A stretch of DNA of 64,000 nucleotides from an uncultured bacterium. GTDB taxonomy: Bacteria > Cyanobacteriota > Vampirovibrionia > Gastranaerophilales > Gastranaerophilaceae. The DNA lies in NCBI GenBank assembly GCA_947428835.1, contig CANENE010000002.1, positions 16,901-80,900 of the forward strand. Reading direction: 5' to 3'. The notes below the pieces were generated by a model. It was given only the letters and a program-made list of their open reading frames with translations. It had not been told where the DNA came from and did no database searches. Every line of letters starts with the position of its first letter. The stretch's first letter is position 1. This document shows, in pieces, positions 191 to 63,748 of the stretch. The translations under genes were made by a program, and so were the position numbers.

Positions 191-191
191 T

Positions 192-27321: not shown

Positions 27322-28377
27322 ATGGAAAATAATATAAAATACTTTAAAGGTTCTTTTATTTTTACTTTTGCTGCTCTTATTTTCGGGTTTTTGTGGGCTC
27401 ATCATATGAACCCCGGAAGTGAATTTAAAAGCATTTTTGTAGTTTTTGTTTTGAGTATTTTGGAAGTGAGCTTATCTTTTGATAATGCTGTAATAAATGC
27501 AGCCAAGCTTGAGAAAATGTCTGCACTTTGGCAGCATCGGTTTTTGACTTGGGGTATATGGATAGCTGTATTTGGAATGAGGTTTTTATTCCCTTTGCTT
27601 GTGGTTGCAGTTTTTTCAAAGTTATCAATAATAAAAGTCTTTGATATGGCGCTAAATAGCCCTAATGATTATGCTCATTATCTTCATATATCGCATCCAT
27701 TTGTAATAACCTTTGGTGCAAGTTTTTTAATAATGCTTTTTTTCAATTATTTCTTTAATAGCGAAAAAAAAGTTTTTTGGCTCAAACCAATTGAAAAAAG
27801 AATAGCATTATTAGGTAAAATTAAAGGGTTGAATACGATATTAACTCTTGCAATTTTATATTTTACATCTTCTTTTATAGGGCCAAATAGCAGATTAGAT
27901 ATGATTATATCGGGGCTTTGGGGTATCGGTATTTATCTTTTTATAGACGGGCTTTCTTCTTTTCTTGAAAAACAAGCTGAAAATACGATGACAAAACCTG
28001 CTGATTGCAGCCCTCATTTTAATCTTGCAAATCACTGCTTTATAAATTTTTTGTATTTAGAATTGATAGATGCATCTTTTTCGCTCGACGGGGTGCTTGG
28101 AGCTTTTGCTTTAAGCAAGGATATTTTAATAATTGCTATCGGTCTTTCAATCGGGGCTATGTTTGTCAGGTCTTTAACCATTATGCTTGTTGAAAAAAAG
28201 ACCTTAAAAGAATATATCTATCTTGAACATGGCGCCCACTGGGCAATTGGGGCACTTGCTGTAATAATGTTTATTTCTTCCATAAAAGAAGTAAGTGAAA
28301 TTATAACAGGGTTGATTGGTGTAATTTTTATTTCAGCTTCTTTTGTATCTTCTCTAAAAGAAAAAGATAACGGTTAG
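27322..28377 (+). CDS. DUF475/TerC-like integral membrane protein
   Basis: Polytopic, with repeated SLSFDNAVINA / DASFSLDGVLGAFA motifs. Confidence 0.7.
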   Translation: MENNIKYFKGSFIFTFAALIFGFLWAHHMNPGSEFKSIFVVFVLSILEVSLSFDNAVINAAKLEKMSALWQHRFLTWGIWIAVFGMRFLFPLLVVAVFSKLSIIKVFDMALNSPNDYAHYLHISHPFVITFGASFLIMLFFNYFFNSEKKVFWLKPIEKRIALLGKIKGLNTILTLAILYFTSSFIGPNSRLDMIISGLWGIGIYLFIDGLSSFLEKQAENTMTKPADCSPHFNLANHCFINFLYLELIDASFSLDGVLGAFALSKDILIIAIGLSIGAMFVRSLTIMLVEKKTLKEYIYLEHGAHWAIGALAVIMFISSIKEVSEIITGLIGVIFISASFVSSLKEKDNG

Positions 28378-28673
28378 GCTTTATTTTTTATAACGCCGTA
28401 TTTTTCCATTACTTCTACAATTTTTTGTTCAAGGTTGTCGTTTTCCGTTGGTTTTTTTGTGCTTTGATTAAACATCTCTCCTTTTCCTGATACAAGCCAA
28501 TTTAGATTTGCATTAACTTTTTTGTCCAACTGAACAAAAAGATTTAAAGAAGGAGCTCTTCTATTTTGTTCATAATTAGTCAAAGTGTTTGCTGACATCT
28601 CTAACCTATCGGCAAATTTAGAGACTGATAAACCTAATTCTATTCGAAGCTTTTTTAAATTTTGCGCAAACAT
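28374..28673 (-). CDS. XRE-family HTH regulator, long class (cassette 1)
   Basis: MFAQNLKKLRIELGLSVSKFADRLEMSANTLTNYEQNRRAPS HTH, then the NLNWLVSGKGEMF motif shared with the 57674, 63452 and 50163 genes. Divergent from the pilin-like gene. Confidence 0.85.
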   Translation of the reverse strand: MFAQNLKKLRIELGLSVSKFADRLEMSANTLTNYEQNRRAPSLNLFVQLDKKVNANLNWLVSGKGEMFNQSTKKPTENDNLEQKIVEVMEKYGVIKNKA

Positions 28674-28706
28674 TTTTTGCCCTTGACTGTAAAATTTTAT
28701 TAATTA

Positions 28707-28747
28707 TGTTCATTTGAACTTGACAATTTTGTTCATTTGACTATAAT
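28707..28747 (+). promoter_or_regulatory. Candidate promoter (TTGACA-16-TATAAT) with two direct operator-like repeats TGTTCATTTGA
   Basis: TTGACA at 28720-28725 and TATAAT at 28742-28747. Repeats at 28707-28717 and 28730-28740, the second lying inside the spacer. Confidence 0.5.
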
Positions 28748-28806
28748 TAGAATAAGAATAGTTTCTTTTCTATCACTATTCTATAACTATAACATATAAA
28801 CCATAA

Positions 28807-28864
28807 AATTTGGCAAAATTTGCCTCATTTTTTGTACACAAAATATTTTTTTAAGGAAAATAAC
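28807..28864 (+). promoter_or_regulatory. Conserved 5' leader of the long-class cassettes (two small hairpins plus AAGGAAAATAAC-ATG)
   Basis: GGCA-N5-TGCC (28812-28824) then TTTTGT-AC-ACAAAA (28830-28843). The same layout occurs at 58069-58137 and 63234-63317(-). Confidence 0.5.
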
Positions 28865-30109
28865 ATGAAAGATATAAACAAGCCTTTAAAGGCGCATTTG
28901 TTCTGCATTGATTTTTGGTTCAGGGAGGAAAAAGCCTTTTCTCTTATAGAACTGCTTGTGACACTCATTATAATGTCTTTGCTTATATCGGCCTTTATGC
29001 CTGTAGTAACTAAGAAATTAAAATCTTCTGCGACGGTATTGGGTGGTGGTTCGGGTGATGGAGGTTTTTCATCCGATATACTTTTTTCTAAAGAATGTGA
29101 AAAATTTTCAACAGAAGAATATAAATGCTTGATGTGTTCAACAACATCTTGCACATTGTGTTCAACTCAATTAAGTACAATAACAGGTTATTATGTAGAT
29201 CCGTCCGAAGGCTGTGAGCCTAAAAATTGTGCAGATAAGTTTGGAAGCAATTGTATGGATTGTAAAAAAGATTCTTGCAGCGCTTGTATTCCGGGAAGTG
29301 CTTTTGATGCTGAAACGAATAGTTGCAAAGAATGCGAAGCAGGATATTATTCTTTAGGAGGGTTGTCAAATTGTGAAAAATGTCCCGCAGGTTCGGTTTC
29401 AACAAAAGGTTCATCAGGCTGCGTATCTTGTCCTTCTGAATGTAAAAGCTGCACGACGGCGGAAATGTGTACCGAGTGCAATCAAGGCTATATATTAAAC
29501 TCGGGAAAATGTGTTTTAGGTTGCAATCCGCAAACGGTTACACTTTCAGGTACAAATACAAAAGTTACCAGATTCAATATGGGAGATGATCCAAACTGCC
29601 CAAGAGATGTTATACAATCTATGTCAGGTGTAATATTTGTACCTGTTGGTACAAACTGCCCGGATTCAAGAAATAATAAATTATGCTGCTGGTATGGCGT
29701 AACTGCTGTCGGCAATACCTGTACAAATAAGGGTGGTGTCTATTCTGGCTGTAATAGAACAGTATGTATGTGGCCTGCTGCAAAGAAAATATGCGAGTCT
29801 ATCGGTAAAGGTTGGAAACTTCCTGATACGGCAAATTCTATGGCAACCTGGTATCCTAATAATTCTACGGCATCAACAGGGCTTATGCTTTGTAGACATG
29901 CAGTGGGACGCGATGATTCCGATCTTTGTACGGATGCTATTACCAGCTGCCCGGACGCTGATGGCGGTTGTGCTCCATCGGGCGTATGGGCGAATGCTCT
30001 TAGTGCTAATCGTAACGGGCATGAATATAGCTGGATGTATTTCGGCTGGGATACCAGTAAATGGACCGGCATAACTCATGCATTTTCTGTGCGCTGCGTA
30101 AAAGAATAA
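28865..30109 (+). CDS. Prepilin-N-terminus protein with CXXC/furin-like Cys-rich repeats and one DUF1566/FISUMP-like module (P1, 414 aa)
   Basis: 24-aa leader then FSLIELLVTLIIMSLLISAF (class III signal type, Glu at +5). Contains CKECEAGYYSLGGLSNCEKCPAGSV...CVSCPSECKSC repeats. C-terminal CCWYG...YSGCNRTVCMW..AAKKIC...GWKLPD...FSVRCVKE. Confidence 0.85.
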   Translation: MKDINKPLKAHLFCIDFWFREEKAFSLIELLVTLIIMSLLISAFMPVVTKKLKSSATVLGGGSGDGGFSSDILFSKECEKFSTEEYKCLMCSTTSCTLCSTQLSTITGYYVDPSEGCEPKNCADKFGSNCMDCKKDSCSACIPGSAFDAETNSCKECEAGYYSLGGLSNCEKCPAGSVSTKGSSGCVSCPSECKSCTTAEMCTECNQGYILNSGKCVLGCNPQTVTLSGTNTKVTRFNMGDDPNCPRDVIQSMSGVIFVPVGTNCPDSRNNKLCCWYGVTAVGNTCTNKGGVYSGCNRTVCMWPAAKKICESIGKGWKLPDTANSMATWYPNNSTASTGLMLCRHAVGRDDSDLCTDAITSCPDADGGCAPSGVWANALSANRNGHEYSWMYFGWDTSKWTGITHAFSVRCVKE

Positions 30110-30113
30110 AATT

Positions 30114-30167
30114 TGTTATTTTTTTGTGTTAGATTATGCGCCTTTGGTTTTCAAAGGTGCTTTTTTT
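30114..30167 (+). terminator. Conserved 3' box (TGTTATTTTTTTGTGTTAGATTA) plus rho-independent terminator
   Basis: Box begins 5 nt after the stop. Hairpin GCGCCTTTG-N5-CAAAGGTGC plus T7 at 30138-30167. Confidence 0.75.
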
Positions 30168-30235
30168 ATGGATTTCTGCGGTATATTAAAAATATGCCTC
30201 GCAATGACAAGTATAAACATTAATTTAAACAACTC

Positions 30236-30337
30236 GTCACCCTGAACTCGTTTCAGGGTCTAACCAGCTTTGGGATATTATATGAAATTTATTATTCATA
30301 CTAACACATCAAATGCTGAAACAAGTTCAGCATGATG
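30236..30337. repeat. REP/MITE-like composite repeat (L hairpin plus inverted R hairpin), copy A
   Basis: L is GTCACCCTGAACTCGTTTCAGGGTCTAACC (30236-30265). R is AAATGCTGAAACAAGTTCAGCATGATG (30311-30337). GCCTCGCAATGA boxes at 30196 and 30371. Confidence 0.8.
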
Positions 30338-30410
30338 TATGGAAGCCAGAATTGCCACGGCGATAAAATTGCCTCGCAATGATGATTGTCTACAACACCC
30401 TTTCAAAATT

Positions 30411-30437
30411 AAAAAAAACGCAAGGGGTAACCTTGCG
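30411..30437 (-). terminator. Rho-independent terminator of the 30476..31696 gene
   Basis: Minus strand reads CGCAAGG-N5-CCTTGCG followed by T8. Confidence 0.8.
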
Positions 30438-30475
30438 TTAAGTAATTTAAGTTAAGCGGAATGTGGGTGTGTAGA

Positions 30476-31696
30476 TTATGCAAATGCTTTGAATGAACCT
30501 TCAATGTTATCGTCAATTACTTTCTTTACAGAATCAACTTCTGTTGTAACTGCGCTACGTTGAGTTTCAATACTATCTAATTCAAGTTCAAGTTTTTTAT
30601 CTTGGTTTTGAATTTGGGTTTGTAATCTGTCATATTTTGCTTTAGCTTTATCGTCGTCTTGGGTATAATATGAGTCGCTGATGTTTGCTGTAGCGTCCCA
30701 AGATAAGCTTCTCCATTTAACTTTTTGAGTTTCGGAATCTAAGTTTCCTTTTTCAATCAGATATTTTCCGTTTCTCAAACAGTCTTGAAGATAATTTGGA
30801 CCATCGGTTGCTCCGGCTGAATCTGTTGTGCCGTATTTAAGGCTTGAATCAACAACATATCTTGCAACAACAACGCCGTTTGCATCCAATAAGCTGAATC
30901 TTCCATCTGATCCTTCGCTAATTTTAGCATTGCTTGCTTGTTTAACAACTGATTGAGGAATAGCGTTAGCGTTATTTGCAATAGTTGCAAGTTCGGAACT
31001 TGAAAAACCGTTGATTTCAGCTTGGCTTGCAAGAGCACCTGTTAAATAATTATAATAAACTTTGTCGCCTGTTTGTTTTTTAAGTTCGATTAAACCTTGT
31101 TTAGTATCTATCTGCAGGTTATTTCTTATAATTTCGCCTGTTTTATCTTCATCAAGATAGTTAGCCAAAGCGCTTCCTGCTAAAGGTAATACATAAGAAC
31201 TTCCTGTTTTTTGTCTGTTGCCCATAGCATCAGTTGTAGTTACTCTATAGATACCGTCTTTGTCTTGCGAAGTATTAACATTAACGTCTTTTGAGACGGC
31301 TCCGGGGATTTCATCTACGCTTGAAACAACGATTGCGCCATATGCATCTACAAGACGATATGCAGAAGTGCTTGCATATTCTTGATTTTCGGTTCTTTCA
31401 TATGGCTTAATGCCGCTGTCTTCGGATGAAAATTGAGCCAAAGTGCCGCTTACTAAAGCAGCATAAGTTAAATTTGTTGTCTTTTTCACTACATCATCAT
31501 CAGCACCTGCTGAAGTTAGAGAAAGTGAAATTTTCATTTGCCTGTTTGATGTCGCATCTTCGTATTCGCAGCTGATTTCTTCAAGTTGTTGAGATAATAC
31601 CAGCCTTTTTTGAGAAATTTGCTGGGCGCGATACTCCAGGTCACTTTTCCTGGCAGTTAATAATAACATTCTGCCTTGACTTGCTGATAGACCCAT
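30476..31696 (-). CDS. Hypothetical protein with coiled-coil termini and a Ser/Thr/Gly/Ala-rich central domain (possible filament or surface structural protein)
   Basis: 406 aa, no signal peptide. Helical N-terminus (MGLSASQGRMLLLTARKSDLEYRAQQISQKRLVLSQQLEE) and C-terminus (YDRLQTQIQNQDKKLELELDSIETQRSAVTTEVDSV). AAGGTGG RBS and own terminator, so monocistronic. Confidence 0.6.
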   Translation of the reverse strand: MGLSASQGRMLLLTARKSDLEYRAQQISQKRLVLSQQLEEISCEYEDATSNRQMKISLSLTSAGADDDVVKKTTNLTYAALVSGTLAQFSSEDSGIKPYERTENQEYASTSAYRLVDAYGAIVVSSVDEIPGAVSKDVNVNTSQDKDGIYRVTTTDAMGNRQKTGSSYVLPLAGSALANYLDEDKTGEIIRNNLQIDTKQGLIELKKQTGDKVYYNYLTGALASQAEINGFSSSELATIANNANAIPQSVVKQASNAKISEGSDGRFSLLDANGVVVARYVVDSSLKYGTTDSAGATDGPNYLQDCLRNGKYLIEKGNLDSETQKVKWRSLSWDATANISDSYYTQDDDKAKAKYDRLQTQIQNQDKKLELELDSIETQRSAVTTEVDSVKKVIDDNIEGSFKAFA

Positions 31697-31872
31697 TTTT
31701 TACCACCTTTACTTTTAAATTACTTACAGATTTAGCATTTTTATACTTTACCCAAATATTAAATTCCCGAATTTTTTATCTTCTAACTTGCTTTTAACAG
31801 TAACTTTATATTTTTTAACATTTGTTAACATATTTTCTTTAAGTTTTTGCATGTTTTACTTTTTGCTATAAC

Positions 31873-33996: not shown

Positions 33997-34015
33997 AAAA
34001 TAAATCTACAAAACA

Positions 34016-34041
34016 AAAGGCGCTTTTAAAAGCGCCTTTTT
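34016..34041. terminator. Bidirectional terminator
   Basis: AAAAGGCGCTTTTAAAAGCGCCTTTTT palindrome between convergent genes. Confidence 0.75.
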
Positions 34042-34058
34042 GATAATTGTTAATATTT

Positions 34059-34842: not shown

Positions 34843-35898
<1,056 letters not shown>

Positions 35899-35946: not shown

Positions 35947-36162
35947 TTAATCTTCAAAATCAAACAGTTCTTTAATATTAATTCCAAGGTTATCGGCTAT
36001 TATTTTTAGTTTTGTGATTGTAACGTCGGTTGCTCCTATTTCAAGCAGGCTAATCATTGACCTTGAAATGCCGTTTGTTCCGATATCATCTTGCGTAAGG
36101 TGTTTTTCTTTTCTTATTTTTTTTAAGTTTTTTGCAAATTTTTGTAAAAAAACCTTGTTCAT
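35947..36162 (-). CDS. XRE-family HTH regulator, short class (cassette 2)
   Basis: 71 aa. LKKIRKEKHLTQDDIGTNGISRSMISLLEIG HTH. Divergent from P2. Confidence 0.8.
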   Translation of the reverse strand: MNKVFLQKFAKNLKKIRKEKHLTQDDIGTNGISRSMISLLEIGATDVTITKLKIIADNLGINIKELFDFED

Positions 36163-36242
36163 TTTTAAATTGTTAGCTATACTAGCATTAAATACAACTA
36201 GTCACACTAGCAAAATTATTCAAGGAAAGGACGGAAATTCTT

Positions 36243-37823: not shown

Positions 37824-37876
37824 TGTTATTTTTTGTGTTAGATTACGCACCTTTGGTTTTCAAAGGTGCTTTTTTT
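37824..37876 (+). terminator. Conserved 3' box plus rho-independent terminator
   Basis: TGTTATTTTTTGTGTTAGATTA, then GCACCTTTG-N5-CAAAGGTGC plus T7 (37847-37876). Confidence 0.75.
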
Positions 37877-37988
37877 AAAGGCTTCTGCCAGAGTACTCTG
37901 CCGGACTTGAAGTGCATTGAATTGCACTTCAAGACAGAGGGAAGTTAAAAAATGGCAAACGTTGAGTTTGACATTTTCTGCATACCGA

Positions 37989-38203
37989 CACCTCAGATGC
38001 TGAAACAAGTTCAGCATGACGTATGTGGACATTGGGGCTTGCATTCGTTATTATGAGAGTTTCTATAAGAAATTCAGGATATTCCAGAAAAACAAAATTT
38101 GCGCAATTCGTCACCCTGAACTTGTTTCAGGGTCTGACCAAGTTTGTGGCAACGCATAAAGTCAGTTATTGTTCATTACTTAGATGCTGAAACAGATTCA
38201 CTT
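37989..38203. repeat. REP/MITE-like repeats, copy set B (R, L, degenerate R)
   Basis: R is CACCTCAGATGCTGAAACAAGTTCAGCATGACG (37989-38021). L is GTCACCCTGAACTTGTTTCAGGGTCTGACCA (38110-38140, with tail AGTTTGTGGCAACGCATAAA). Degenerate R at 38181-38203. A separate 11-bp-stem hairpin lies at 37906-37933. Confidence 0.8.
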
Positions 38204-49734: not shown

Positions 49735-50043
49735 TTATTTAGTCTTATTTTCAAGTTGTTTAATTGTTGATAATAGTTTTTTAATTTCTTTATCTTTTTG
49801 CTTAATGAGCATGGATTTATTTTTTATAATTTCTCCAAAAGAGTTTATAATAAATTCGTGTCTTGTGTGCGCATTATATGCCTTAAACAGCTCTGTCAGG
49901 CGATTTGAGACTGTAGAAGGGGAATAATTAAATTTCTTTGCAATTTGAGAAATTGTGAATCCTTGAAATACGCATTTGGCAATGAGTTTGCGCTCTTGAG
50001 CATACTCTTTTTTTAAGTTTTTTTTCATAATTTGGCAATCCAT
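49735..50043 (-). CDS. Small HTH protein (LuxR/sigma-70 region-4-like)
   Basis: GFTISQIAKKFNYSPSTVSNRLTELFKAY helix-turn-helix. Divergent from an XRE gene. Confidence 0.55.
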   Translation of the reverse strand: MDCQIMKKNLKKEYAQERKLIAKCVFQGFTISQIAKKFNYSPSTVSNRLTELFKAYNAHTRHEFIINSFGEIIKNKSMLIKQKDKEIKKLLSTIKQLENKTK

Positions 50044-50162: not shown

Positions 50163-50459
50163 ATGAAAGCACTTGGAACAAGATTTAAATATGTAAGAAA
50201 GTTATTAAACAAGTCACAAGAAGAGCTTGCGACAGATTTTAGTGTGACAAAACAAGCAATTTCAAATATTGAAACTTGCAAATGTTTTCCAAGCATCCCT
50301 CTGTTATACAAGCTTGCAAACGATTATGATGTTAATCTTAACTATCTTGTATTAGGTAAAGGTGATATTTTCATAGTTAAAGAAAAGACTTACCAATCCC
50401 TTAGAGAGACTCTTATACAAGAGGTTGAGACGATTCTAAATGCAAGAGGTATAAAATAG
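50163..50459 (+). CDS. XRE-family HTH regulator, long-class relative with no adjacent pilin-like gene
   Basis: HTH (LLNKSQEELATDFSVTKQAISNIE) and an NLNYLVLGKGDIF motif related to the cassette regulators. Upstream TTGACT-18-TACAAT. Confidence 0.8.
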   Translation: MKALGTRFKYVRKLLNKSQEELATDFSVTKQAISNIETCKCFPSIPLLYKLANDYDVNLNYLVLGKGDIFIVKEKTYQSLRETLIQEVETILNARGIK

Positions 50460-52946: not shown

Positions 52947-54575
52947 ATGACAAAATATATTTTTATAACAGGCGGCGTTGTAAGTTCCCTTGGAAAGGGA
53001 ATTGTAGCTGCCTCTCTTGGTAGGTTACTGGTTTCGCGCGGATTTAGTGTTACAATTCAAAAATTTGACCCTTATATAAATGTGGACCCCGGTACTATGA
53101 GTCCTTTCCAACACGGAGAAGTATTTGTTTGTGAAGATGGAGCAGAAACTGATCTTGATTTAGGGCATTATGAAAGATTTATTGATACATACCTTTCGCA
53201 GGCAAATAATGTAACATCAGGAAGTGTTTATCAAACTGTAATAAATAAAGAAAGACGTGGCGAATACTTGGGCGCTACTGTTCAGATGATTCCTCATATT
53301 ACAGGTGAAATTAAATCCCGTCTTATTATGGCATCAAAAAGAACAAACCCCGATTTTTTAATAGCAGAAGTCGGTGGAACCATAGGCGACATTGAAGGGC
53401 TTCCATATATAGAAGCAATCCGCCAGTTTAGATCCGAAATCGGTTATAGAAATTCAATGTCAATCCATGTGACTTTGCTTCCCTATCTTCCTACATCAGG
53501 AGAGCTTAAAACAAAGCCTTCTCAGCATAGTGTAAATGTTTTAAGAAGCTATGGAATACAGCCTGAAATGCTTGTATTAAGAACACAGGTTCCTGTTGGA
53601 AAAACAGAAAAAGACAAGCTTGCGTTATTTTGTTCGATGGATAAAAATTGTGTTATTGAATGTAAAGATATGAAATCTATCTATGAAGTGCCACTGGCGC
53701 TTGAAGCGCAAAATATGACAAGCGAAGTTTTGAAAATATTAGATGTTGAAGACAGACCCTCTAATCTTGATGACTGGAAAGAATTGGTTCACAAAATCAA
53801 AAACCCAAAAAGCGAAATAACAATAGGATTGGCCGGAAAATATACGGAATTAAACGATGCTTATATTTCTGTTGTTGAAAGCTTAAAACATGCCGGGCTT
53901 AAGTTTGATACAAAAGTCAATATCAAATGGATTGCTTCAGAAGAAATTGTAGATGACAAAGAAGCTGCCTCGCATCTTGCCGATGTGGATGGTATTGTAG
54001 TCCCCGGGGGTTTTGGAGTGAGGGGAATTGAAGGCAAATTAAAAGTAATTAAATATGCAAGAGAAAATAATATTCCATATTTGGGCTTGTGTTTAGGAAT
54101 GCAATGCGCTGTTATTGAATTTGCAAGAAATATGGCAGGGCTTGAAAATGCCAATTCAACAGAATTTGATAAAAATACTAAACATAAAGTAGTTGATCTT
54201 ATGGAAGAACAAAAAAACATAGCAGGCTACGGTGCCACTATGCGTCTTGGCTCTTACCCTTGTAAGATTGAAAAGAACACAAAGGCATTTTCTGCTTATA
54301 ATAAAGAATTAATTTTAGAGCGCCACAGACACAGATTTGAATTTAACCATGAATATAAAGAAGCTCTTGAAAAAGCAGGGCTTAAGATTTCAGGAACAAG
54401 CCCTGACGGCTTGCTTGCTGAAATTGTTGAATATCCTAAAAATGATTGGTTTGTGGCATGTCAATTCCATCCGGAATTTAAATCCCGCCCGCAAAATCCT
54501 CATCCTTTATTTTTGGGACTTATGGAAAACGCTGTCAAAAGAAATAGAAATATTAATAAGCAGTTTGCTATTTAA
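52947..54575 (+). CDS. pyrG: CTP synthase
   Basis: [17 protein letters not shown]-terminus and glutamine amidotransferase GLCLGMQ / HRHRFE motifs. Confidence 0.95.
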
Positions 54576-54786
54576 ATTTAAAAATGCTATAAGGTTCGAT
54601 TTTTAGTGCATTTGCAAGTTTAAGGATAGTTTTAAGGCCGGGCTTATTTATGCATACTTCAATTTTGCCTAAATAGTCCAAACTTATGCCTGATTTTTCG
54701 GCTAATTTTTCTTGTGTAAAACCGGCTTTTTCTCTAAGCTGTTTTATTCTTGTACCTAGTTTTTGATAAAAAATCGCTTCTTCCAT
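54568..54786 (-). CDS. XRE-family HTH regulator, short class (cassette 3)
   Basis: 72 aa. [33 protein letters not shown]. Divergent from P3. Confidence 0.8.
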
Positions 54787-54795
54787 ATTTAAACT

Positions 54796-54839
54796 TTACT
54801 GGAAAATATAACATATTTTTACTGGACATTTTCCAGTAA
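54796..54839. promoter_or_regulatory. Operator-like inverted repeat TTACTGGA-N5-TCCAGTAA plus an upstream half-site
   Basis: Inverted repeat at 54819-54839 and an extra TTACTGGAA at 54796-54804, in the XRE/P3 intergenic region. Confidence 0.4.
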
Positions 54840-54885
54840 GTAGGGTATTATTTTTTGTAAGTAATCTTCACAAAAGGAATTTCAA

Positions 54886-56466: not shown

Positions 56467-56471
56467 ATTCA

Positions 56472-56524
56472 TGTTATTTTTTGTGTTAGATTGAGGCTTT
56501 TTCTTTGATTGAGCCTCTTTTTTT
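56472..56524 (+). terminator. Conserved 3' box plus rho-independent terminator
   Basis: TGTTATTTTTTGTGTTAGATT, then GAGGCT-N13-AGCCTC plus T7. The stem sequence differs from the other copies. Confidence 0.7.
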
Positions 56525-56542
56525 AAAAAAGCTTTTTAATTT

Positions 56543-56684
56543 GTCGCCCTGAACTCGTTTCATGGTCTAACCAGGTCTGTGGCGTTACATCTTTTTTACA
56601 TACCAACACCTCAGATGCTGAAACAAGTTCAGCATGACGTAGCGCGTATATTAATGTTTCAATTTGTCACGGCGAGTGATTATA
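56543..56684. repeat. REP/MITE-like composite repeat, copy C (L, R, third box)
   Basis: L is GTCGCCCTGAACTCGTTTCATGGTCTAACC (56543-56572). R is CACCTCAGATGCTGAAACAAGTTCAGCATGACG (56607-56639). GTCACGGCGAGTGA at 56666-56679. Confidence 0.8.
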
Positions 56685-56688
56685 CAGC

Positions 56689-57381: not shown

Positions 57382-57673
57382 ATCTAAATTCTAATATATA
57401 AAAGGCTTTTAGAGAATATATTAAGTTATATTACAAAAAGTATATACTCAAAGTCAATTTTTTGAAGCAAAATTACTTTATTAGAATATAAGAAAACGAT
57501 AGAATTGAAAGTTAAAAAGCCTAAGAGAATTTAAATAAGGCACCAAAAATTAAACAGTATTTTTTATACAACGAAGGATAATAAAACAGATATTTTTTAC
57601 TCTCTCTCTTGATATCCTCGTGTTTATAAATGTTTGGCACAAGTCAAACATTTTTTTTGTCTAAAAATTGATT

Positions 57674-57955
57674 CTACCCTATCAACCCTCGTTTTTTTAG
57701 AACAATATCAACTTTTCTGATAAATTCATCATCTATGTTATCTTTACTTACAAACATTTCGCCGTCGCCTGAGATAAACCAGTTTAAATTTACATTTAAA
57801 ATATTATACAATTGAATAGATAATTCTATGGATGGAACTCTTTTTTTACCTTCATAGCCCCAAAGTGTACTTGCAGGAATGCCAATCTTTTCTGCCATTT
57901 TTTCAACAGATAAATGCAGTTCTTTGCGAATTTTCTTTAGATTTTGAGCGTACAC
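57674..57955 (-). CDS. XRE-family HTH regulator, long class (cassette 4)
   Basis: MYAQNLKKIRKELHLSVEKMAEKIGIPASTLWGYE HTH and the NLNWFISGDGEMF motif. Divergent from P4. Confidence 0.85.
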   Translation of the reverse strand: MYAQNLKKIRKELHLSVEKMAEKIGIPASTLWGYEGKKRVPSIELSIQLYNILNVNLNWFISGDGEMFVSKDNIDDEFIRKVDIVLKKRGLIG

Positions 57956-57986
57956 AATTACCCCGAACGTATTAATTTTTGTAAAT

Positions 57987-58029
57987 TTCTATTCAATTGA
58001 GTTGACTATTCTGTTCAATAGAATATAAT
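57987..58029 (+). promoter_or_regulatory. Candidate promoter (TTGACT-16-TATAAT) with two operator-like repeats TTCT(A/G)TTCAAT(T/A)GA
   Basis: TTGACT at 58002-58007 and TATAAT at 58024-58029. Repeats at 57987-58000 and 58009-58022. Same geometry as cassette 1. Confidence 0.5.
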
Positions 58030-58068
58030 TAAAAGTAAGATAGATATTTCATAATAACTATATCACAG

Positions 58069-58137
58069 AATTGGTAAAAAATGGCATTTCTGCCTCACTT
58101 TTTTGTACACAAAAAAATAACTTTTAAGGAAAATAAC
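58069..58137 (+). promoter_or_regulatory. Conserved 5' leader (GGCA-N4-TGCC hairpin, TTTTTGT-AC-ACAAAAA hairpin, AAGGAAAATAAC-ATG)
   Basis: Alignable with 28807-28864 and 63234-63317(-). Confidence 0.5.
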
Positions 58138-61100
58138 ATGGAAAAATACAACAAGGCTCAAGGAGTTTATTTGCTGTGCTTGAAGGCTGATTTGAAATGC
58201 AAAAAAGCATTTTCACTTATAGAAATCCTGATAAGTTTAATCATCATCTCTCTTCTTATCGCGGCTTTTACTCCAATTATCACAAAGAAGCTTAAAGCAT
58301 CAGATATTTCAATAGGTTCTTTTGGAAGCGGAAGTAACATTAATATGACATTAGAAAGACAAGTCACAAAAGAAGATTGTGATAAATATGATGCAATTTT
58401 TATTCCTGCAGCAATGAACGGGGGCACAAGAAATCTTTGTGTTACAAGATATAATGTCGGAGATAATATAGATAATGGCGGAGTTCCAATTGCAAAAAGC
58501 GCTAAGACTCTTTCAGTCGGAAGTACATGTAATGACCATTTAAACTGCTGCTGGCAAGGAGCAACTGCAAACAGTTGTGCAAATGGTGATAGCAATAGTG
58601 ATTACTCGGGGTGTAATAGAACAGTCTGCGGATGGCAGGCAGCAAACGCCAGCTGTGCTGCGTATGCTCCAGATAATGAAAATGAAGGAAGCTGGAGACT
58701 TCCAACCAAAGAAGAAATATTAAACTGGCAGGACAACTTTTCTAATCTTCAAACAAACAAAGGTAAAGAAGGGCTTCAATTATGCAGTTATGAAGCAATT
58801 GATGGTTATACAAAATGCTCTGCAACAACAGCTTGCAATGATACAGGTCTTACCCATAACGGTTGTCATCCGCATCATATATTTTCAAACAATGCATTTG
58901 ACACATTTGCACTAAACCGAGCAAAATTTGACTATTCAAATAGTGAAAATATTACATATTCAGCAGGTGCAAGATGTGTATTGGATAAAATAGCTGTTGA
59001 TGTCTCTGAGCTTCCAAATGGTGGCGGGATAAAAGACCCGACAGTTGACCCTTTTTATGGAGAACCCAAAGATCAGGCAGATTGTGATAAAGTAGTTGCA
59101 ATATTCATAGATAAAAAAATGTCAGGAGCAAACAGAAACATCTGCGTTTCTAAATATAACGTAGGAGACGCTGGTCCCGATGGCTTTGGACCGCCTATAC
59201 CTGAAAGCTTCAATCAATATATAATGAATGCAGGCCAAACTTGTCCTTATAATGGCAATTGTTGTTGGAAAGGAAAGACTGCAAATGCTTGTGGTATTAC
59301 AGGCAATGCCGGAGCAAATTATAGTGGCTGTAACAGAACCGTATGCCAATATAATGCTGCAAACGCTGCCTGCAGACAATATAATGCTTTTGGAGCAACT
59401 GCCGTTGGAGCCTGGAGGTTGCCAACCGGTGCAGAATTTAGTGTATGGATGCAATACATGAAGGAAATAAGCAACAACAAAGGACCTGACGGTCTGCAGC
59501 TTTGTGTAAGTGGAACAAGCGCAGGATATGTACAATGTGCAAATATACAAAACTGCCCGGGCTTTTCAAGTGTTTCCGGATGGGGTGCTCATTGTACGCC
59601 ATTTAACAATTGGACTTCAACGATAATTTCAAAAACTTATCAAACCTATAATACTGCAGGAGGAGTATTTGGCGGAGGGAACGATATTCCTGCAAGTGCA
59701 AGATGTGTTTATGACGGCATTACAAAAGCCAATAATTATGAAGAAGATTTAAGCGACTATGACGATTCTAATGCTCCAAAAGATGAACCAAAGTCTCAAG
59801 CTGATTGCGACAAATTGACAGCTATTTTTATTCACAAAAAATATGCTGGAGGTTCAAGAAATCTTTGCATAAGTAAATATAACGTAGGGGATAGCGGACC
59901 AAGCGGCTCAGGGCCGACAATTCCATCAGCTTATAATACTTATATAATGAATGCAGCTCAAAGTTGCCCTTATAATGGTTATTGCTGCTGGAAAGGAAGG
60001 ACTGCAAATGCTTGTGGTATTACGGGTAATGTCGGAGCTAACTACAGCGGATGTAACAGAACCGTTTGTCAGTGGCACATTGCAAATGAAAGTTGTTTAT
60101 TGTGGACTGCGGGAGGAAAAACCCAAGCAAGAGCTTGGAGACTCCCAACACAGGCAGAATTTACAAATATTGTAAATTATATGAATATCATAAATAACGA
60201 TAGAGGTGCTGACGGTCTGCAGCTTTGTGTAAGTGGAACAAACGCAGGATATGTACAATGTGCAAATATACAAAACTGCCCGGGCTTTTCAAGTGTTTCC
60301 GGATGGGGTGCTCATTGTACGCCATTTAACAATTGGACTTCAACGACGGGTTTAACTTATGATGCTGCCGGTAATGCATATAGCGGGGGCGCAGATATTC
60401 CTGCAAGTGCAAGGTGCGTGTATGATGGAACCATAAATAAACCAAGCGATATAGGAGACTATGATGAAAGTAATGCGCCCGATGATGAACCAAAAAGCCA
60501 AGCAGATTGTGATAAATTAACCGCAATATTTGTACACAAAAAATACTCAGGTGACCCAAGAAATATTTGTATTTCAAAATATAACGTAGGAGATACCGGT
60601 CCAAGCGGTTCAGGACCCCAAATTCCTACTCAATATGCGCAGTATACAATTAATGCTGCTCAAGCTTGCGGTAAATCCGGCTATTGTTGTTGGAAAGGTA
60701 AAACCGCTAATTCTTGCGGAATAGTAGGAAATGCCGGAGCTGATTATTCGGGTTGTAACAGAACAGTATGCCAATGGTATGTTTCTGATGCTGCCTGCAA
60801 AGAATATACTGCAGGTGGAAAAACCCAAGCCGGTTATTGGAGACTACCTACCCAGGTTGAGTTTTCAAGCATGTTCCAATATATGGGAGAAATTAACAAT
60901 AATAGAGGTAAAAACGGAATTCAATTGTGCACCTCAGGAACTAATCCGGGTTTTGTACAATGTGCAAATATACAAAACTGCCCGGGCTTTTCAAGTGTTT
61001 CCGGATGGGGTGCTCATTGTACGCCATTTAACAATTGGACTTCAACATTGGGTATAACCTACAATTCCATTGGAAATACATTTAGCGGGGGCGCAGATAT

Positions 61101-61146
61101 TCCTGCAAGCGCAAGATGTGTTTATGATGGAACAAAGGTAGAATAA
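58138..61146 (+). CDS. Giant prepilin-N-terminus protein with four DUF1566/FISUMP-like Cys-rich modules (P4, 1002 aa)
   Basis: 24-aa leader then FSLIEILISLIIISLLIAAFTPIITKKLKAS. Module ends at ARCVLDK, SARCVYDG (three times). Modules 2-4 are tandem paralogues. Confidence 0.85.
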   Translation: MEKYNKAQGVYLLCLKADLKCKKAFSLIEILISLIIISLLIAAFTPIITKKLKASDISIGSFGSGSNINMTLERQVTKEDCDKYDAIFIPAAMNGGTRNLCVTRYNVGDNIDNGGVPIAKSAKTLSVGSTCNDHLNCCWQGATANSCANGDSNSDYSGCNRTVCGWQAANASCAAYAPDNENEGSWRLPTKEEILNWQDNFSNLQTNKGKEGLQLCSYEAIDGYTKCSATTACNDTGLTHNGCHPHHIFSNNAFDTFALNRAKFDYSNSENITYSAGARCVLDKIAVDVSELPNGGGIKDPTVDPFYGEPKDQADCDKVVAIFIDKKMSGANRNICVSKYNVGDAGPDGFGPPIPESFNQYIMNAGQTCPYNGNCCWKGKTANACGITGNAGANYSGCNRTVCQYNAANAACRQYNAFGATAVGAWRLPTGAEFSVWMQYMKEISNNKGPDGLQLCVSGTSAGYVQCANIQNCPGFSSVSGWGAHCTPFNNWTSTIISKTYQTYNTAGGVFGGGNDIPASARCVYDGITKANNYEEDLSDYDDSNAPKDEPKSQADCDKLTAIFIHKKYAGGSRNLCISKYNVGDSGPSGSGPTIPSAYNTYIMNAAQSCPYNGYCCWKGRTANACGITGNVGANYSGCNRTVCQWHIANESCLLWTAGGKTQARAWRLPTQAEFTNIVNYMNIINNDRGADGLQLCVSGTNAGYVQCANIQNCPGFSSVSGWGAHCTPFNNWTSTTGLTYDAAGNAYSGGADIPASARCVYDGTINKPSDIGDYDESNAPDDEPKSQADCDKLTAIFVHKKYSGDPRNICISKYNVGDTGPSGSGPQIPTQYAQYTINAAQACGKSGYCCWKGKTANSCGIVGNAGADYSGCNRTVCQWYVSDAACKEYTAGGKTQAGYWRLPTQVEFSSMFQYMGEINNNRGKNGIQLCTSGTNPGFVQCANIQNCPGFSSVSGWGAHCTPFNNWTSTLGITYNSIGNTFSGGADIPASARCVYDGTKVE
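59000..61143 (+). repeat. Intragenic tandem repeat, three modules of about 700-720 nt with near-identical cores
   Basis: The core ...GTACAATGTGCAAATATACAAAACTGCCCGGGCTTTTCAAGTGTTTCCGGATGGGGTGCTCATTGTACGCCATTTAACAATTGGACTTCAAC recurs from 59530, 60253 and 60955. Copies 1 and 2 share about 145 nt with one mismatch. Confidence 0.9.
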
Positions 61147-61153
61147 TTAAGTT

Positions 61154-61205
61154 TGTTATTTTTGTGTTAGATTACGCACCTTTGAAAAACAGAGGTGCTT
61201 TTTTT
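61154..61205 (+). terminator. Conserved 3' box plus rho-independent terminator
   Basis: TGTTATTTTTGTGTTAGATTA, then GCACCTTTG-N5-CAGAGGTGC plus T7. Confidence 0.75.
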
Positions 61206-61221
61206 AAAAGCTTCTTAACTC

Positions 61222-61486
61222 GTCACCCTGAATTCGTTTCAGGGTCTTACCAGGTTTGTGGTAACGCATAAAACCCGTTGTTACGCTTCAACACCTCAGA
61301 TGCTGAAACAAGTTCAGCATGACGCAACTGCGCATTGATGTTTATTTTCGTCACTGCAATGACATATTTTAAACATTAATTTATATAACCGTCACCCTGA
61401 ACTCGTTTCAGGGTCTTACCAAGTAAAGTAAAATAAATAATTATTATATTACACCTCAAAATATCAGATGCTGAAACAAGTTCACT
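61222..61486. repeat. REP/MITE-like composite repeats, two tandem units (copy set D) between convergent P4 and P5
   Basis: L1 at 61222-61252 (plus tail to 61272), R1 at 61292-61324, L2 at 61391-61422, degenerate R2 at 61465-61486. GTCACTGCAATGAC at 61350-61363 with its inverted partner ATTGCAGTGAC at 61611-61621. Confidence 0.8.
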
Positions 61487-61628
61487 TTGGTGTATAGAAG
61501 TCTTTTTGCACACATAGGTCATCATTATTTGTAAAAACAGTAAATTATAAATTTATCAATTTTTTAATTATATTTCGCACCTGCAACGAAACTGCTGCAA
61601 GCTAAAGACGATTGCAGTGACATAACAT

Positions 61629-61682
61629 AAAAAAAGAGGTCTGAAAAATTTCAAACCTCATAATCTAACACAAAAAATAACA
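61629..61682 (-). terminator. Conserved 3' box plus rho-independent terminator of P5 (minus strand)
   Basis: Minus strand reads TGTTATTTTTTGTGTTAGATTA, then GAGGTTTGAAA-N3-TTTCAGACCTC plus T7. Confidence 0.75.
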
Positions 61683-61685
61683 AAC

Positions 61686-63233
61686 TTATTTTGGAATTTT
61701 ATCTGTAACGCATCTTGCGGAAGTCCCTTCATGTCGTGGCCTTGCTATGACGGCTTGAAAAATATATTTATATGTTATATAAGAAACACCATTTTGCCCC
61801 CATAGTGCAATTGGAATGCAGCCCGTACCTGCTGCACTTGTGCACGCTGTTGATGAATAGCAATTAACAGCCCCGCCATTTATTCCGCCTTCATTGCAAA
61901 GTTGTAAACCTGCAGAACCCTTGTTTAGTGTTATAGTACTCAAATTTTTGCTCCATCCAATCAATTCCTCTTCTGTAGGAAGTCTCCAAAGTCCTTTTAT
62001 ATCGTCAGGTGCATAGCTATTGCAAGAAATGTCACTTGCCGCCCAGTTACATAGAGTTCTATTGCAGCCGCTATATGTGCTATTGCCGTTGCCTCCTGCG
62101 GTATCGCAATTGCTTGTTGTTTTGCCTTGCCAGCAGCAATACTTACTTGCGCAAGTGCCCCCTGTAATTTGAGTCACATTTACAATAGGGTCTGTATAAA
62201 TATCGCCGATATTGTATTTTGTAGCACAAACGCCGGTTTTGCCGCCATTCATATTCTTTGGAATAAAAAGTGCATTATATTTATCGCAATCTTCTTGGCT
62301 CTTTGGTTCTTTATAGTTAAATCCGTCATCGGCATCTTCTTCTTTTTTTGCATTTTCAATTACTGTATCTAATACGCATCTTGCACTTTGTGCATTAGTT
62401 GGCTCATATTCTCTGTAGGAATCAAATATTCCTTCGTGCAGATATTTATCCCAATACATGTTTGTATTTGTACCTGTTTCTGTCAACGACCAGTTATGAT
62501 ATGGCCAGCATGCATTATCAAATGAACCCGGGCACAATTTAGCAAAAGATACTCCGGGATTGGTATGTGTTATGCACACCACGGATCCGTAATTTTTGGC
62601 GCTATCGCACAGTTGCAAGCCGTCATAGCCTTTATTAAACTGTAAGTTATTTAAATGCTTTGCCCATCCGCTCATTTCAATATAAGTTGGAAGTCTCCAC
62701 TTGCCCCCTAGTGCCTTGGGGGAATATTCTTTGCAGCTCAAATTTGCAGCTTCCCACTGACACATTGTTCTGTAGCAGCCGCTGTAGTCTGTATTTCCGT
62801 TGCCTGTCGTGCCACAATAGCCGGAGGGTGATGTTTGCCCCTGCCAGCAGCAGAGGCTTTCATTTCCTTTAGTGCAGTTACTGCCTGCAGGAACCGTTTC
62901 TACGCTTTTAGATATAGTGATACCATTATCTCCCACATTATATTTAGTGACGCAAATATCATTAATGCCGTCATTCATTTCTTTTGGAATAAATAAGGCG
63001 TTAACTTTTTGGCAATCTTCTTTCGTCGGGGGTCTTGCGGCAGTCTCTGTGCTGCTTTCTTCCTTTTTGCCACTAAAGCTTCCAACCGTAATGTCTGATG
63101 CTTTGAGTTTTTTGGTGATAATTGGTGCGAAAGCTCCAATTAAAAGAGACATTATAATAAGACTTGTAAGAAGCTCAATAAGGCTAAAAGCGCATCGAAA
63201 TTGAGCCTTTTGAGGCTTTGGTTTTTTCTCCAT
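61686..63233 (-). CDS. Prepilin-N-terminus protein with two DUF1566/FISUMP-like Cys-rich modules (P5, 515 aa)
   Basis: 15-aa leader then FSLIELLTSLIIMSLLIGAFAPIITKKLKAS. Contains CCWQGQTS, YSGCYRTMCQWEAANLSCKEY, KWRLPT, GLQLC and SARCVLD. Module 2 ends SARCVTD. Confidence 0.85.
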   Translation of the reverse strand: MEKKPKPQKAQFRCAFSLIELLTSLIIMSLLIGAFAPIITKKLKASDITVGSFSGKKEESSTETAARPPTKEDCQKVNALFIPKEMNDGINDICVTKYNVGDNGITISKSVETVPAGSNCTKGNESLCCWQGQTSPSGYCGTTGNGNTDYSGCYRTMCQWEAANLSCKEYSPKALGGKWRLPTYIEMSGWAKHLNNLQFNKGYDGLQLCDSAKNYGSVVCITHTNPGVSFAKLCPGSFDNACWPYHNWSLTETGTNTNMYWDKYLHEGIFDSYREYEPTNAQSARCVLDTVIENAKKEEDADDGFNYKEPKSQEDCDKYNALFIPKNMNGGKTGVCATKYNIGDIYTDPIVNVTQITGGTCASKYCCWQGKTTSNCDTAGGNGNSTYSGCNRTLCNWAASDISCNSYAPDDIKGLWRLPTEEELIGWSKNLSTITLNKGSAGLQLCNEGGINGGAVNCYSSTACTSAAGTGCIPIALWGQNGVSYITYKYIFQAVIARPRHEGTSARCVTDKIPK

Positions 63234-63317
63234 GTTATTTTCCTTTAGATGTGTGTAAATTTTTTTGTATATATTTGTAATTTATGCATAAAAAATGAGG
63301 CATAATATGCCAAATTT
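63234..63317 (-). promoter_or_regulatory. Conserved 5' leader of P5 (GGCAT-N3-ATGCC hairpin, TTTATG/CATAAA palindrome, AAGGAAAATAAC-ATG)
   Basis: Minus strand reads AAATTTGGCATATTATGCCTCATTTTTTATGCATAAA...AAGGAAAATAACATG. Hairpin positions are conserved, but the second stem has a different sequence. Confidence 0.45.
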
Positions 63318-63338
63318 AAATTATATGGTATAGTATAA

Positions 63339-63416
63339 ATACAATTGTATTTATTTTATAAACTACATTACACTTATTATACATACAATCGTATGTAATA
63401 TGCAAGTACAATTGTA
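63339..63416. promoter_or_regulatory. Three operator-like palindromes (ATACAATTGTAT, CATACAATCGTATG, TACAATTGTA)
   Basis: Located at 63339-63350, 63382-63395 and 63407-63416 in the P5/XRE intergenic region. Confidence 0.45.
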
Positions 63417-63451
63417 TTATTGTAACAAAAATTAATACAAATAGAGTAATA

Positions 63452-63748
63452 ATGCTAGGTAAAAATCTTAGAAAAATCAGGGAAGAACTTAATTTGTCGG
63501 TTGCGGGGCTGGCAGAAAGACTGGATATGTCCCCCAATACACTTTCAGCTTATGAAAGAAATTTAAGAATGCCTTCGATGGAGCTTGCCATACAATTGTA
63601 TGCAAAATTAAATGTTAATACAAACTGGTTTGTATCAGGCAAAGGAAAGATGTTTAATGATGATATTGTGCCTGAATTTGAGCAAATCAAAGGCAAGCTT
63701 CTTGATGAAGTTAAAAAGCTTTTGAAAGATGAAGGACTAATCAAATAA
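63452..63748 (+). CDS. XRE-family HTH regulator, long class (cassette 5)
   Basis: MLGKNLRKIREELNLSVAGLAERLDMSPNTLSAYE HTH and the NTNWFVSGKGKMF motif. Divergent from P5. Confidence 0.85.
   Translation: MLGKNLRKIREELNLSVAGLAERLDMSPNTLSAYERNLRMPSMELAIQLYAKLNVNTNWFVSGKGKMFNDDIVPEFEQIKGKLLDEVKKLLKDEGLIK

Follow-up and report, generated by a model that had tools for sequence, protein, structure and literature searches.

The window analysed here is a 64,000-nt stretch of contig CANENE010000002.1 (assembly GCA_947428835.1) from an uncultured bacterium of the Gastranaerophilaceae, and the subject of this work is a set of five paralogous genes in it, P1 to P5, each of which faces a divergent gene for a small XRE-type regulator. 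All five open reading frames (ORFs) are intact in the ORF calls of the window and lie where a preliminary description of this DNA had put them. P1 (28865..30109, plus strand) encodes a 24-aa leader, a prepilin-type helix, a Cys-rich furin-like region and one lectin-like module; P2 (36243..37796, plus) starts at a TTG codon with the 4-aa leader MKRG, followed by a prepilin-type helix and two modules; P3 (54886..56466, plus) has an 8-aa leader and two modules, the second of which is divergent; P4 (58138..61146, plus) has a 24-aa leader and four modules; and P5 (61686..63233, minus) has a 15-aa leader and two modules. Each gene is complete, with its own promoter, ribosome-binding site and signal.

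Prepilin-type N-termini

The N-termini of the five proteins follow one layout, in which a leader ending in Ala or Gly precedes FSLIE(L/I)L, about 20 hydrophobic residues and P(I/V)(I/V)TKKLK(A/S)S. A six-frame scan of the 64 kb with the pattern FSLIE[LI]L...P[IV][IV]TKKLK[AS]S found exactly five such N-termini, all of them in P1-P5. The prepilin type proposed for them in the preliminary description is supported by the N_methyl profile (PF07963; gathering threshold 21.2 bits), which scores 23.3 bits in P1, 25.4 in P2, 21.2 in P3 and 23.4 in P4, all at or above threshold, and 16.9 in P5, below it; TIGR02532 also exceeds its cut-off of 16.3 in P1-P4.

Cys-rich modules and their predicted fold

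Motif positions and a MAFFT alignment divide the remainder of P1 to P5 into 1, 2, 2, 4 and 2 modules, respectively, of 204-229 aa each. Nine of the 11 modules contain 14 Cys (range 10-16), and their pairwise identity is 23-74%; modules 2-4 of P4 are 69-74% identical to one another, and the P1 module aligns to the remaining ones at 23-33% identity. The Cys-rich motifs to which the preliminary description had drawn attention are strongly conserved but not invariant, as it had called them, since module 2 of P3 departs from them (WCW, ARTVC, WRLL) and so does P1 (FNMGD, WKLPD, LMLC).

The Lcl_C profile (PF07603; gathering threshold 34.9 bits) is passed by P2 (35.2 bits) and P4 (60.4 bits), with P5 (30.7) and P3 (18.6) below it and no match in P1. 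Membership of the FISUMP family (TIGR02145), also suggested at the outset, did not hold: P4 is the sole match and reaches 21.4 bits, below the curated cut-off of 41.65, and no single stretch passes alone. A sequence search of the PDB with the module profile returned no relative (best E 0.72). The AlphaFold2 model of P2, built from 21 aligned homologues, has a mean predicted local distance difference test score of 76 and comprises an N-terminal helix (residues 7-32), a disordered linker of low confidence (28-49) and two well-folded modules; a single-module model built from the 11 window modules has a predicted template-modelling score of 0.77. Foldseek comparison of the single module with the PDB gives as its top match the C-terminal domain of the Legionella pneumophila protein Lcl (Lcl-CTD, 8q4e_A; E 0.15, template-modelling score 0.46 on the target), after which come CD94/NKG2, invasin, snaclecs and CD23, and the whole P2 model finds as its top matches Mtd, which is the target of a diversity-generating retroelement (DGR), and C-type lectins. 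The top structural matches in BFVD (E 0.03-0.6) comprise viral C-type lectins as well as DUF1566 and FISUMP proteins from phages. The Pfam scores and the Foldseek list together indicate that the modules are DUF1566/C-type-lectin-like; the relation to DUF1566/Lcl_C put forward earlier is thus borne out by the Pfam matches of P2 and P4 and by best structural matches to Lcl-CTD, phage DUF1566 proteins and C-type lectins.

Over 145 modules, the scaffold (Cys, W, RLP, GLQLC and SxRCV) is conserved, and the maxima of entropy and of insertions and deletions fall at profile positions 151-210, the stretch from GLQLC to SxRCV. It is this same stretch that DGRs mutate in relatives.

Distribution of the family

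A protein identical to P2 exists in public assemblies (P0001), and one named relative, from Cyanobacteria bacterium SIG27, is labelled "type II secretion system protein". Scanning genomes with P2 as the only query gave no match; with the module alignment as query, the scan returned 133 relatives, from which 78 loci were kept. Identifiable titles of these relatives are all Gastranaerophilales, Melainabacteria or Vampirovibrio, and some metagenome-assembled genomes (MAGs) contribute 8-10 loci. A HMMER search of 1.84 billion cluster representatives with the module profile found 467 proteins at E <= 0.001, including 109 at E <= 1e-30, and the largest family matches have up to five modules and 1332 aa. 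The family is thus confined to gut MAGs of the Gastranaerophilales/Vampirovibrionia and is a narrow, lineage-specific and heavily expanded subfamily within DUF1566. Two sub-types can be told apart, one with FSL(I/V)E and several modules, as in the window, and the other with FTLAELL, about 800 aa long, in which one module is accompanied by a Gly_rich_2 domain.

For a survey of the relatives, ORFs were called in all loci (about 975 kb), XRE proteins were sought by phmmer and jackhmmer seeded with the six XRE proteins of the window, and modules were sought with a hidden Markov model of the 11 window modules; 72 genes with an intact N-terminus were obtained. F1, E5 and P22 characterise the helices of type IVa pilins, where they matter for processing and for the packing of helices in the filament. 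Among the family N-termini, Pro22 is found in 72/72 and Ser14 in 67/72; Glu+5 belonged to the search pattern, so that its family count is not independent. The strict conservation of F1, E5 and P22 speaks for a role of the helix beyond anchoring. No candidates came from a homologue search in which only the N-terminal 51 aa served as query.

Divergent XRE genes and conservation of the pairing

The regulator genes fall into a long and a short class. XRE1 (28374..28673, minus; 99 aa; HTH_19/HTH_3/Phage_CI_repr), XRE4 (57674..57955, minus; 93 aa) and XRE5 (63452..63748, plus; 98 aa) are of the long class, and XRE2 (35947..36162, minus; 71 aa; HTH_3) and XRE3 (54568..54786, minus; 72 aa; HTH_3) are of the short class. 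XRE1 shares 47% identity with each of the other two long-class proteins, XRE4 and XRE5. The XRE identity assigned to these neighbours in the preliminary description is confirmed by HTH_3 (PF01381; threshold 23), which all five pass with 35.8-52 bits; the long-class proteins are CI-repressor-like and also pass Phage_CI_repr. In the window, five of five P genes have the XRE gene adjacent and divergent, at an intergenic distance of 80-218 bp.

Conservation of this pairing in relatives had been named beforehand as the test by which the idea could be refuted, and the pairing was found there. Of the 72 intact genes, 45 face a divergent ORF for an XRE protein of 69-143 aa, which lies on their upstream side at a distance of 93-406 bp (median 178 bp); the remaining 27 comprise four second genes of tandem arrays, two genes at contig edges and 21 with something else upstream. 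Seen from the regulators, 45 of the 49 XRE-like ORFs in the surveyed loci are divergently paired with a family gene and none is co-directional with one. The XRE/P pairing exceeds chance by far. In several of the 21 genes with something else upstream, the divergent slot is taken by a different small DNA-binding gene, namely one for a MerR protein (L022), for an S24 LexA/CI-like repressor (L038, L078) or for a ribbon-helix-helix protein (L039). A type II toxin-antitoxin assignment was considered and rejected: antitoxin models score far below their cut-offs, and the partner gene is divergent and encodes an exported protein of 414-1002 aa.

A further XRE gene, the sixth in the window and likewise long-class, lies at 50163-50459 (plus); it has no P partner and is divergent from the gene for a 102-aa helix-turn-helix protein (49735-50043, minus; HTH_38, sigma-70 region 4 or GerE-like). 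No module remnant was found near it.

Intergenic control regions

Intergenic region 1 (28674..28864) holds two copies of TGTTCATTTGA, at 28707 and 28730, with the core GTTCATTTGAAC; the copies flank and sit inside a TTGACA-16-TATAAT promoter facing P1 (about 28720-28747), and the leader downstream of the promoter contains the hairpin GGCAAAATTTGCC and a T-run. Region 2 (36163..36242) has the direct repeats TAGCTATACTAGCA and TAGTCACACTAGCA at 36174 and 36199. In region 3 (54787..54885), a perfect 12-nt inverted repeat, TTACTGGAAAAT (54796-54807 / 54828-54839), brackets the -35 element of TGGACA-17-TATTAT (54823-54851). The repeats TTCTATTCAATTGA and TTCTGTTCAATAGA of region 4 (57956..58137), at 57987 and 58009, surround TTGACT-16-TATAAT (58002-58029), next to which come the conserved leader hairpin and T-run; the palindrome types of this region are TTCAATTGA and TTCAATAGA. 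Region 5 (63234..63451) carries the palindrome ATACAATTGTAT three times, at 63339, 63383 and 63406, and a terminator-like leader hairpin at 63311-63299 on the minus strand.

Regions 1, 4 and 5 share a backbone that consists of a near-consensus promoter facing the P gene, a leader hairpin with a T-run, and AAGGAAAATAACATG at the start codon. Into this backbone each of the three has its own palindrome set, just upstream of the -35 element and within the spacer, 22-23 bp apart. No repeated 8-mer is common to different intergenic regions, and relatives show the same design, yet other palindromes. The layout is the one classically seen with repressors of the Cro/CI type and would let the XRE protein close both the facing promoter and its own; the gene-specific, operator-like palindromes agree with the local control that the preliminary description had in mind when it called the regulators private.

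A perfect copy of the candidate XRE5 operator ATACAATTGTAT lies within the coding part of the XRE5 gene itself (63590-63601, codons IQLY), and a copy with one mismatch lies within XRE4 (57806-57817); these copies may be due to chance by way of a common peptide or may be an extra autoregulatory site. The conserved leader element of regions 1, 4 and 5 (28806-28845, 58081-58114 and 63278-63317) is a short GGCA..TGCC hairpin with a covarying centre (AAA/TTT versus ATA/TAT), followed by TCA(C)TTTTTT, and it looks like a terminator within the 5' untranslated region (UTR). Compared with shuffled sequences, the leader folds with z -2.2 in region 1, -0.5 in region 4 and +0.5 in region 5; an attenuator in the leaders of the three regions is therefore unsupported, as region 1 alone folds better than shuffles.

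Shared elements in the 3' flanks

Every P gene carries the box ATTTTTTGTGTTAGATTA 7-31 nt past its stop codon, and after the box there is a gene-specific GC hairpin and then a T-run. The 15-nt core of the box, TTTTTGTGTTAGATT, is identical in all five copies (30121-30135, 37830-37844, 56478-56492 and 61159-61173 on the plus strand, 61662-61676 on the minus strand) and absent elsewhere in the window. Box and terminator together span 30109..30167 (plus; box TTATTTTTTTGTGTTAGATTA, terminator hairpin) for P1, 37819..37876 (plus) for P2, 56467..56520 (plus) for P3, 61149..61205 (plus) for P4 and 61630..61687 (minus) for P5. Related species have variant spellings of the box, for example TTATGTTATTTTTTGTGTTTTGATA. 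A loose box pattern gives 28 matches in the 975 kb, 25 of which fall no more than 60 nt past the end of a family ORF; it was found for 18 of 35 FSLxE-type genes and for none of the 18 FTLAELL-type genes, which have a box of their own. Pairing between the 3' box and the 5'-UTR was examined as a candidate and is unsupported, with a mean duplex value of -9.4 for the P genes versus -8.1 (minimum -12.4) for 50 controls (p = 0.058).

Farther downstream, 50-150 nt past all five P genes and at no other place in the window, lies a repeat of about 110 nt in which two CTGAAAC(A/G)AGTTCAG hairpins stand in inverted orientation. All ten cores that match CTGAAAC[AG]AGTTCAG in the window fall in P 3' flanks, with none expected by chance. 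The repeat is located at 30220..30339 for P1, where the inverted cores are about 74 nt apart, at 37961..38170 for P2, where the core order is reversed and the distance is 116 nt, and in the 3' flanks of P3, P4 and P5 at 56527..56641, 61206..61326 and 61390..61490, respectively. It folds well (z -1.9 to -3.8), is also present in L003, L020, L028, L036 and L039 and forms a four-unit array in L078 (10411-10980). This hairpin-pair repeat looks like a repetitive extragenic palindrome or a miniature inverted-repeat transposable element.

Sequence variation in the window and in relatives

The preliminary description had also proposed a variation system or contingency repertoire, for which the window offers no parts: no reverse transcriptase, Avd, recombinase or silent copy, no template repeat or A-biased repeat pair, and no phase-variable simple repeats in or before the P genes were found in it, the sole repeat array being the operator repeats of region 5. 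The nucleotide identity between different P genes is at most 79%, which argues against a recent conversion tract.

Relatives of the family present a different picture. Locus L013 contains a 204-nt repeat pair with 92% identity (778-981, minus, versus 2612-2815, plus), in which the mismatches stand at a template A in 16 of 16 cases and the template ORF is Asn-rich; the variable copy falls in the C-terminal, hypervariable half of the family module. This repeat pair is the template/variable signature of a DGR. In two other loci, ORFs of 381 aa for DGR-type reverse transcriptases lie directly downstream of family genes (L056, 1502-2647, plus; L067, 1297-2442, plus); they have the motifs IGNLTSQ and YVDD, and RVT_1 was confirmed for L056, with L067 assigned by motif only. 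L056 also has a module-like fragment (2765-3037) that is 79% identical to the 3' end of the family gene.

Locus L015 has a P gene at 7518-9988 (plus), downstream of which are genes for a reverse transcriptase (RVT_1) and bAvd (10128-11677, minus). Its region 107-7127 (minus) consists of 26 tandem cassettes of 69-77 codons, head-to-head with the expressed-type family gene. The cassettes span only the hypervariable segment, from an LCD handle to an SxRCV handle; 24 of the 26 keep an open, in-frame sequence, the spacers between them (about 49 nt) break the overall frame, and the handles match the P gene up to 97-100%. In the assembly, this P gene is frameshifted precisely in the cassette segment. 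A template repeat was not found in L015, and among 81 loci the cassette array occurs in this one only. The layout resembles a silent-cassette archive of the vls/pilS kind, seen as a single instance in a MAG. In both L013 and L015, the DGR or cassette elements occupy the upstream slot and neither gene has an XRE partner, which suggests that the family may use regulation and hypermutation as alternatives to each other.

Genomic neighbourhood

The genes that separate the P/XRE pairs are queA, a class A penicillin-binding protein gene, genes for MlaA, a CHAP protein and a TPR protein, trpS, dapF, rpsF-ssb-rpsR, panD and pyrG. The pairs are thus dispersed single loci among housekeeping genes and form no array, so that the term "cassette family", in the sense of a contiguous set, had to be given up. 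The first 28 kb of the window are a dcw-type cell-wall cluster and housekeeping genes, and the GC content of the pairs resembles that of their surroundings. A tRNA search of the window found none, and Rfam gave no family at gathering level across the whole window, with only chance-level matches in the 3' flanks of P4 and P5. A 406-aa ORF that is convergent with P1 (30476-31696, minus) has no Pfam, NCBIfam or PDB match, and both ends of its product look helical and coiled-coil-like.

At 920-2137 (plus) the window encodes a fusion of VKOR with DsbA/thioredoxin, a disulfide-forming system in an anaerobic gut bacterium, and the fusion gene faces the gene of a LexA-like S24 repressor (192-827, minus). 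A disulfide-forming system fits Cys-rich exported P proteins, and the presence of MlaA and MlaE in the window indicates a diderm envelope. Ordinary GFTLAE pilins of 220-250 aa were found separately in the same MAGs as family members, and the order possesses pilA, pilB, pilC, pilT and pilD (PMC5877343). Together, these pilins, the pil genes of the order, the VKOR-DsbA fusion and the Mla proteins fit an exported, oxidised protein in a piliated diderm.

Proposed function and alternative explanations

We consider it probable, on balance, that P1-P5 encode a repertoire of lectin adhesins that are prepilin-anchored and rich in disulfides, and that a local XRE repressor controls each of them. The five genes would represent an expanded Gastranaerophilales family of exported, disulfide-rich, multi-module lectin-like proteins; prepilin peptidase would cleave them before FSLIE, the helix would incorporate the protein in a type IV pilus or pseudopilus or place it at the tip of one, and the modules would recognise glycans on other cells, on food particles or in host mucus. 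Given the lack of a pilin head in the P2 model, incorporation into a pilus is inferred. Each P gene would be transcribed from its own sigma-70-type promoter overlapped by gene-specific palindromes, and the divergent small XRE protein would bind these palindromes and repress both the P gene and itself. The cell would hold an adhesin repertoire whose members are switched individually, with the shared 3'-UTR box and terminator as an additional family-wide layer.

Several observations weigh against this proposal. As the preliminary description had noted for pilus assembly genes, and as the annotation of the window genes bears out, the 64-kb window encodes no pilus assembly or secretion machinery and no prepilin peptidase; a crude motif scan of about 975 kb of related loci found no ATPase of the type II secretion system (T2SS-E) and no A24 peptidase, a result that is uninformative with flanks of 8-10 kb. 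The residue at -1 is Gly in P2 alone and Ala in P1, P3, P4 and P5, and the family as a whole has the canonical Gly in 38/72 and Ala in 34/72; Ala is the sole substitution at this position that PilD is known to accept. The leaders of P1, P4 and P5 (15-24 aa) are long compared with those of type IVa pilins, and the P2 model shows the alpha1-N helix only, without a globular pilin head (alpha1-C on an antiparallel beta-sheet), so that the word "pilin" in the preliminary description does not suit it. The structural matches are coherent, yet none reaches E <= 0.001 (best 0.03-0.15). On the regulatory side, the candidate operators of regions 1 and 4 have a TTCA-N-TTGA core in common, which means that specificities may overlap and that "private" is perhaps not absolute, and repression rather than activation by the XRE proteins is inferred from operator position only.

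The missing pilin head and the Ala that about half of the family members have at -1 would also suit proteins whose class III N-terminus serves for export and anchoring only, or for a bindosome-like assembly, with lectins that capture substrate and XRE proteins that are still local regulators. Sulfolobus sugar-binding proteins (the bindosome) have class III signals without classical pili, no pilus genes adjoin any of the about 70 loci examined, and the GFTLAE pilins of 220-250 aa are separate in the same MAGs. This explanation seems to us a real but lesser possibility, because a plain anchor hardly explains the strict conservation of F+1, E+5 and Pro22, and because an inner-membrane anchor in a diderm would strand a lectin of 500-1000 aa in the periplasm. 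A sequence-variation system acting in the window itself, by DGR or gene conversion and with the 3' box, hairpin and repeats as cis recognition or recombination sites, is suggested by the DGR parts that adjoin family members in relatives (the template repeat and variable repeat (VR) in L013, RVT_1 in L056 and L015, bAvd in L015) and by the 26-cassette array of the hypervariable segment in L015. The last module of the P proteins, moreover, ends 2-10 codons before the stop codon and is followed by the box and the GC hairpin, the same geometry as that of VR, initiation of mutagenic homing site and hairpin in DGR targets, and conservation is higher in the P 3' flanks than in the coding sequence. 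We nevertheless regard it as quite improbable: reverse transcriptase, Avd, template repeat, recombinase and silent copy are all missing from the window, the five genes are complete with promoter, ribosome-binding site and signal, their identity of at most 79% leaves no recent conversion tract, hairpins that are followed by T-runs are ordinary terminators, and the genes in L013 and L015, which have the DGR or cassette elements upstream, lack an XRE gene.

An origin of the pairs as prophage or mobile remnants, in which CI-like repressors stayed together with phage receptor-binding proteins of the DUF1566/C-type-lectin kind, would account for the match of the long XRE proteins to Phage_CI_repr, for the phage DUF1566 proteins among the best BFVD structural matches and for the hairpin-pair repeats that flank the P genes. 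It is rejected as extremely improbable because the surrounding genes are core housekeeping genes; none of the pairs has a phage gene for a structural protein, an integrase or replication nearby, their GC content is like that of the surroundings, the proteins bear a cellular prepilin signal, and the family has spread vertically within a single bacterial order. Beyond the adhesin repertoire under local repressors that we favour, a wider and, in our view, unlikely scheme would be an order-wide programmable lectin display, in which each genome has dozens of headless prepilin-anchored lectins under interchangeable upstream control layers, and the 3'-UTR box couples the paralogues post-transcriptionally, with only one or a few displayed at a time. 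The control layers would be private repressors (XRE, MerR, ribbon-helix-helix or S24), DGR mutagenesis or, as in L015, a vls-like archive of silent cassettes.

The Gastranaerophilales are widespread and uncultured in the human and animal gut, and their interaction with the host is essentially unknown; the family described here probably serves them as the main repertoire for adhesion or glycan recognition. The layout of one gene and one regulator gives handles, in the form of operators, promoters and the 3'-UTR box, on the choice of the displayed lectin. The family extends the modular-pilin idea to proteins that keep just the assembly helix, and it links three routes by which surfaces vary, namely private DNA-binding regulators, DGR mutagenesis and a possible silent-cassette archive.

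Comparison with known systems

P2 and P4 contain N_methyl and Lcl_C together and in this respect qualify as modular pilins. We take IPR011871 and IPR011460 to be the InterPro entries of FISUMP and DUF1566. Modular pilins comprise more than 1,200 proteins in 264 architectures, among which Dataset S1 gives IPR012902-IPR011871 (40), IPR012902-IPR011460 (7) and IPR012902-IPR011460-IPR011460 (2) (Raynaud et al. 2021, PMC8179133). The protein architecture is thus already recorded there, as a prepilin motif with either of these two entries, and the word "undescribed" in the preliminary description does not hold for it. Of the modular pilins of Streptococcus sanguinis, PilB carries a vWA module and PilC a lectin module; both likewise graft adhesion modules onto a prepilin motif, and the role proposed for them is alike, the binding of ligands presented on a filament. 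PilB and PilC, however, have a true pilin module of helix and beta-sheet that is joined by a short loop to the extra module, whereas the P2 model has the alpha1-N helix and a disordered linker; the P family further differs in having up to four modules in the window and five in relatives, dozens of paralogues per genome, and regulators of its own.

The best PDB neighbour of the module, the Lcl-CTD of L. pneumophila (8q4e), has a C-type-lectin-like fold, and carbohydrate binding is proposed for both. Lcl-CTD, a substrate of the type II secretion system, lacks disulfide bonds and sits as a trimer on a collagen-like stalk (PMC11162425), whereas the P modules have about 14 Cys and an extra N-terminal subdomain (RNICVxKYNVGD ... 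CCWxGxT) and stand in tandem behind a prepilin helix. The C-type-lectin targets of DGRs, such as Mtd of the Bordetella phage and those of the DUF1566 type (PMC6642488), resemble the P modules in the fold class predicted for these, with Mtd as the top PDB match of the P2 model, and in having a hypervariable stretch just before the C-terminal strand; relatives of the P family are truly DGR targets, but the window lacks DGR parts and has regulators instead.

The control regions recall those of lambdoid and 434-type Cro-CI switches, in which a small divergent HTH_3 protein is likewise combined with two or three palindromes that overlap promoters at a distance of 22-23 bp, about two helical turns. 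In the P family a single surface protein would be controlled rather than a lytic operon, there is neither an anti-repressor partner nor a sensor domain, and the operators are candidates. The archaeal bindosome is similar in placing a class III signal on large carbohydrate-binding passengers that are non-classical pilins; it differs in belonging to another domain of life, in its passenger folds and in its dedicated assembly genes, none comparable to which were identified for the P family. In the literature searched, we did not find descriptions of the expansion in Melainabacteria, of the headless design, of the pairing with private regulators or of the shared 3' elements. New here are the conserved pairing with a private regulator, a 3'-UTR box nearly confined to the family, and the hairpin-pair repeat.

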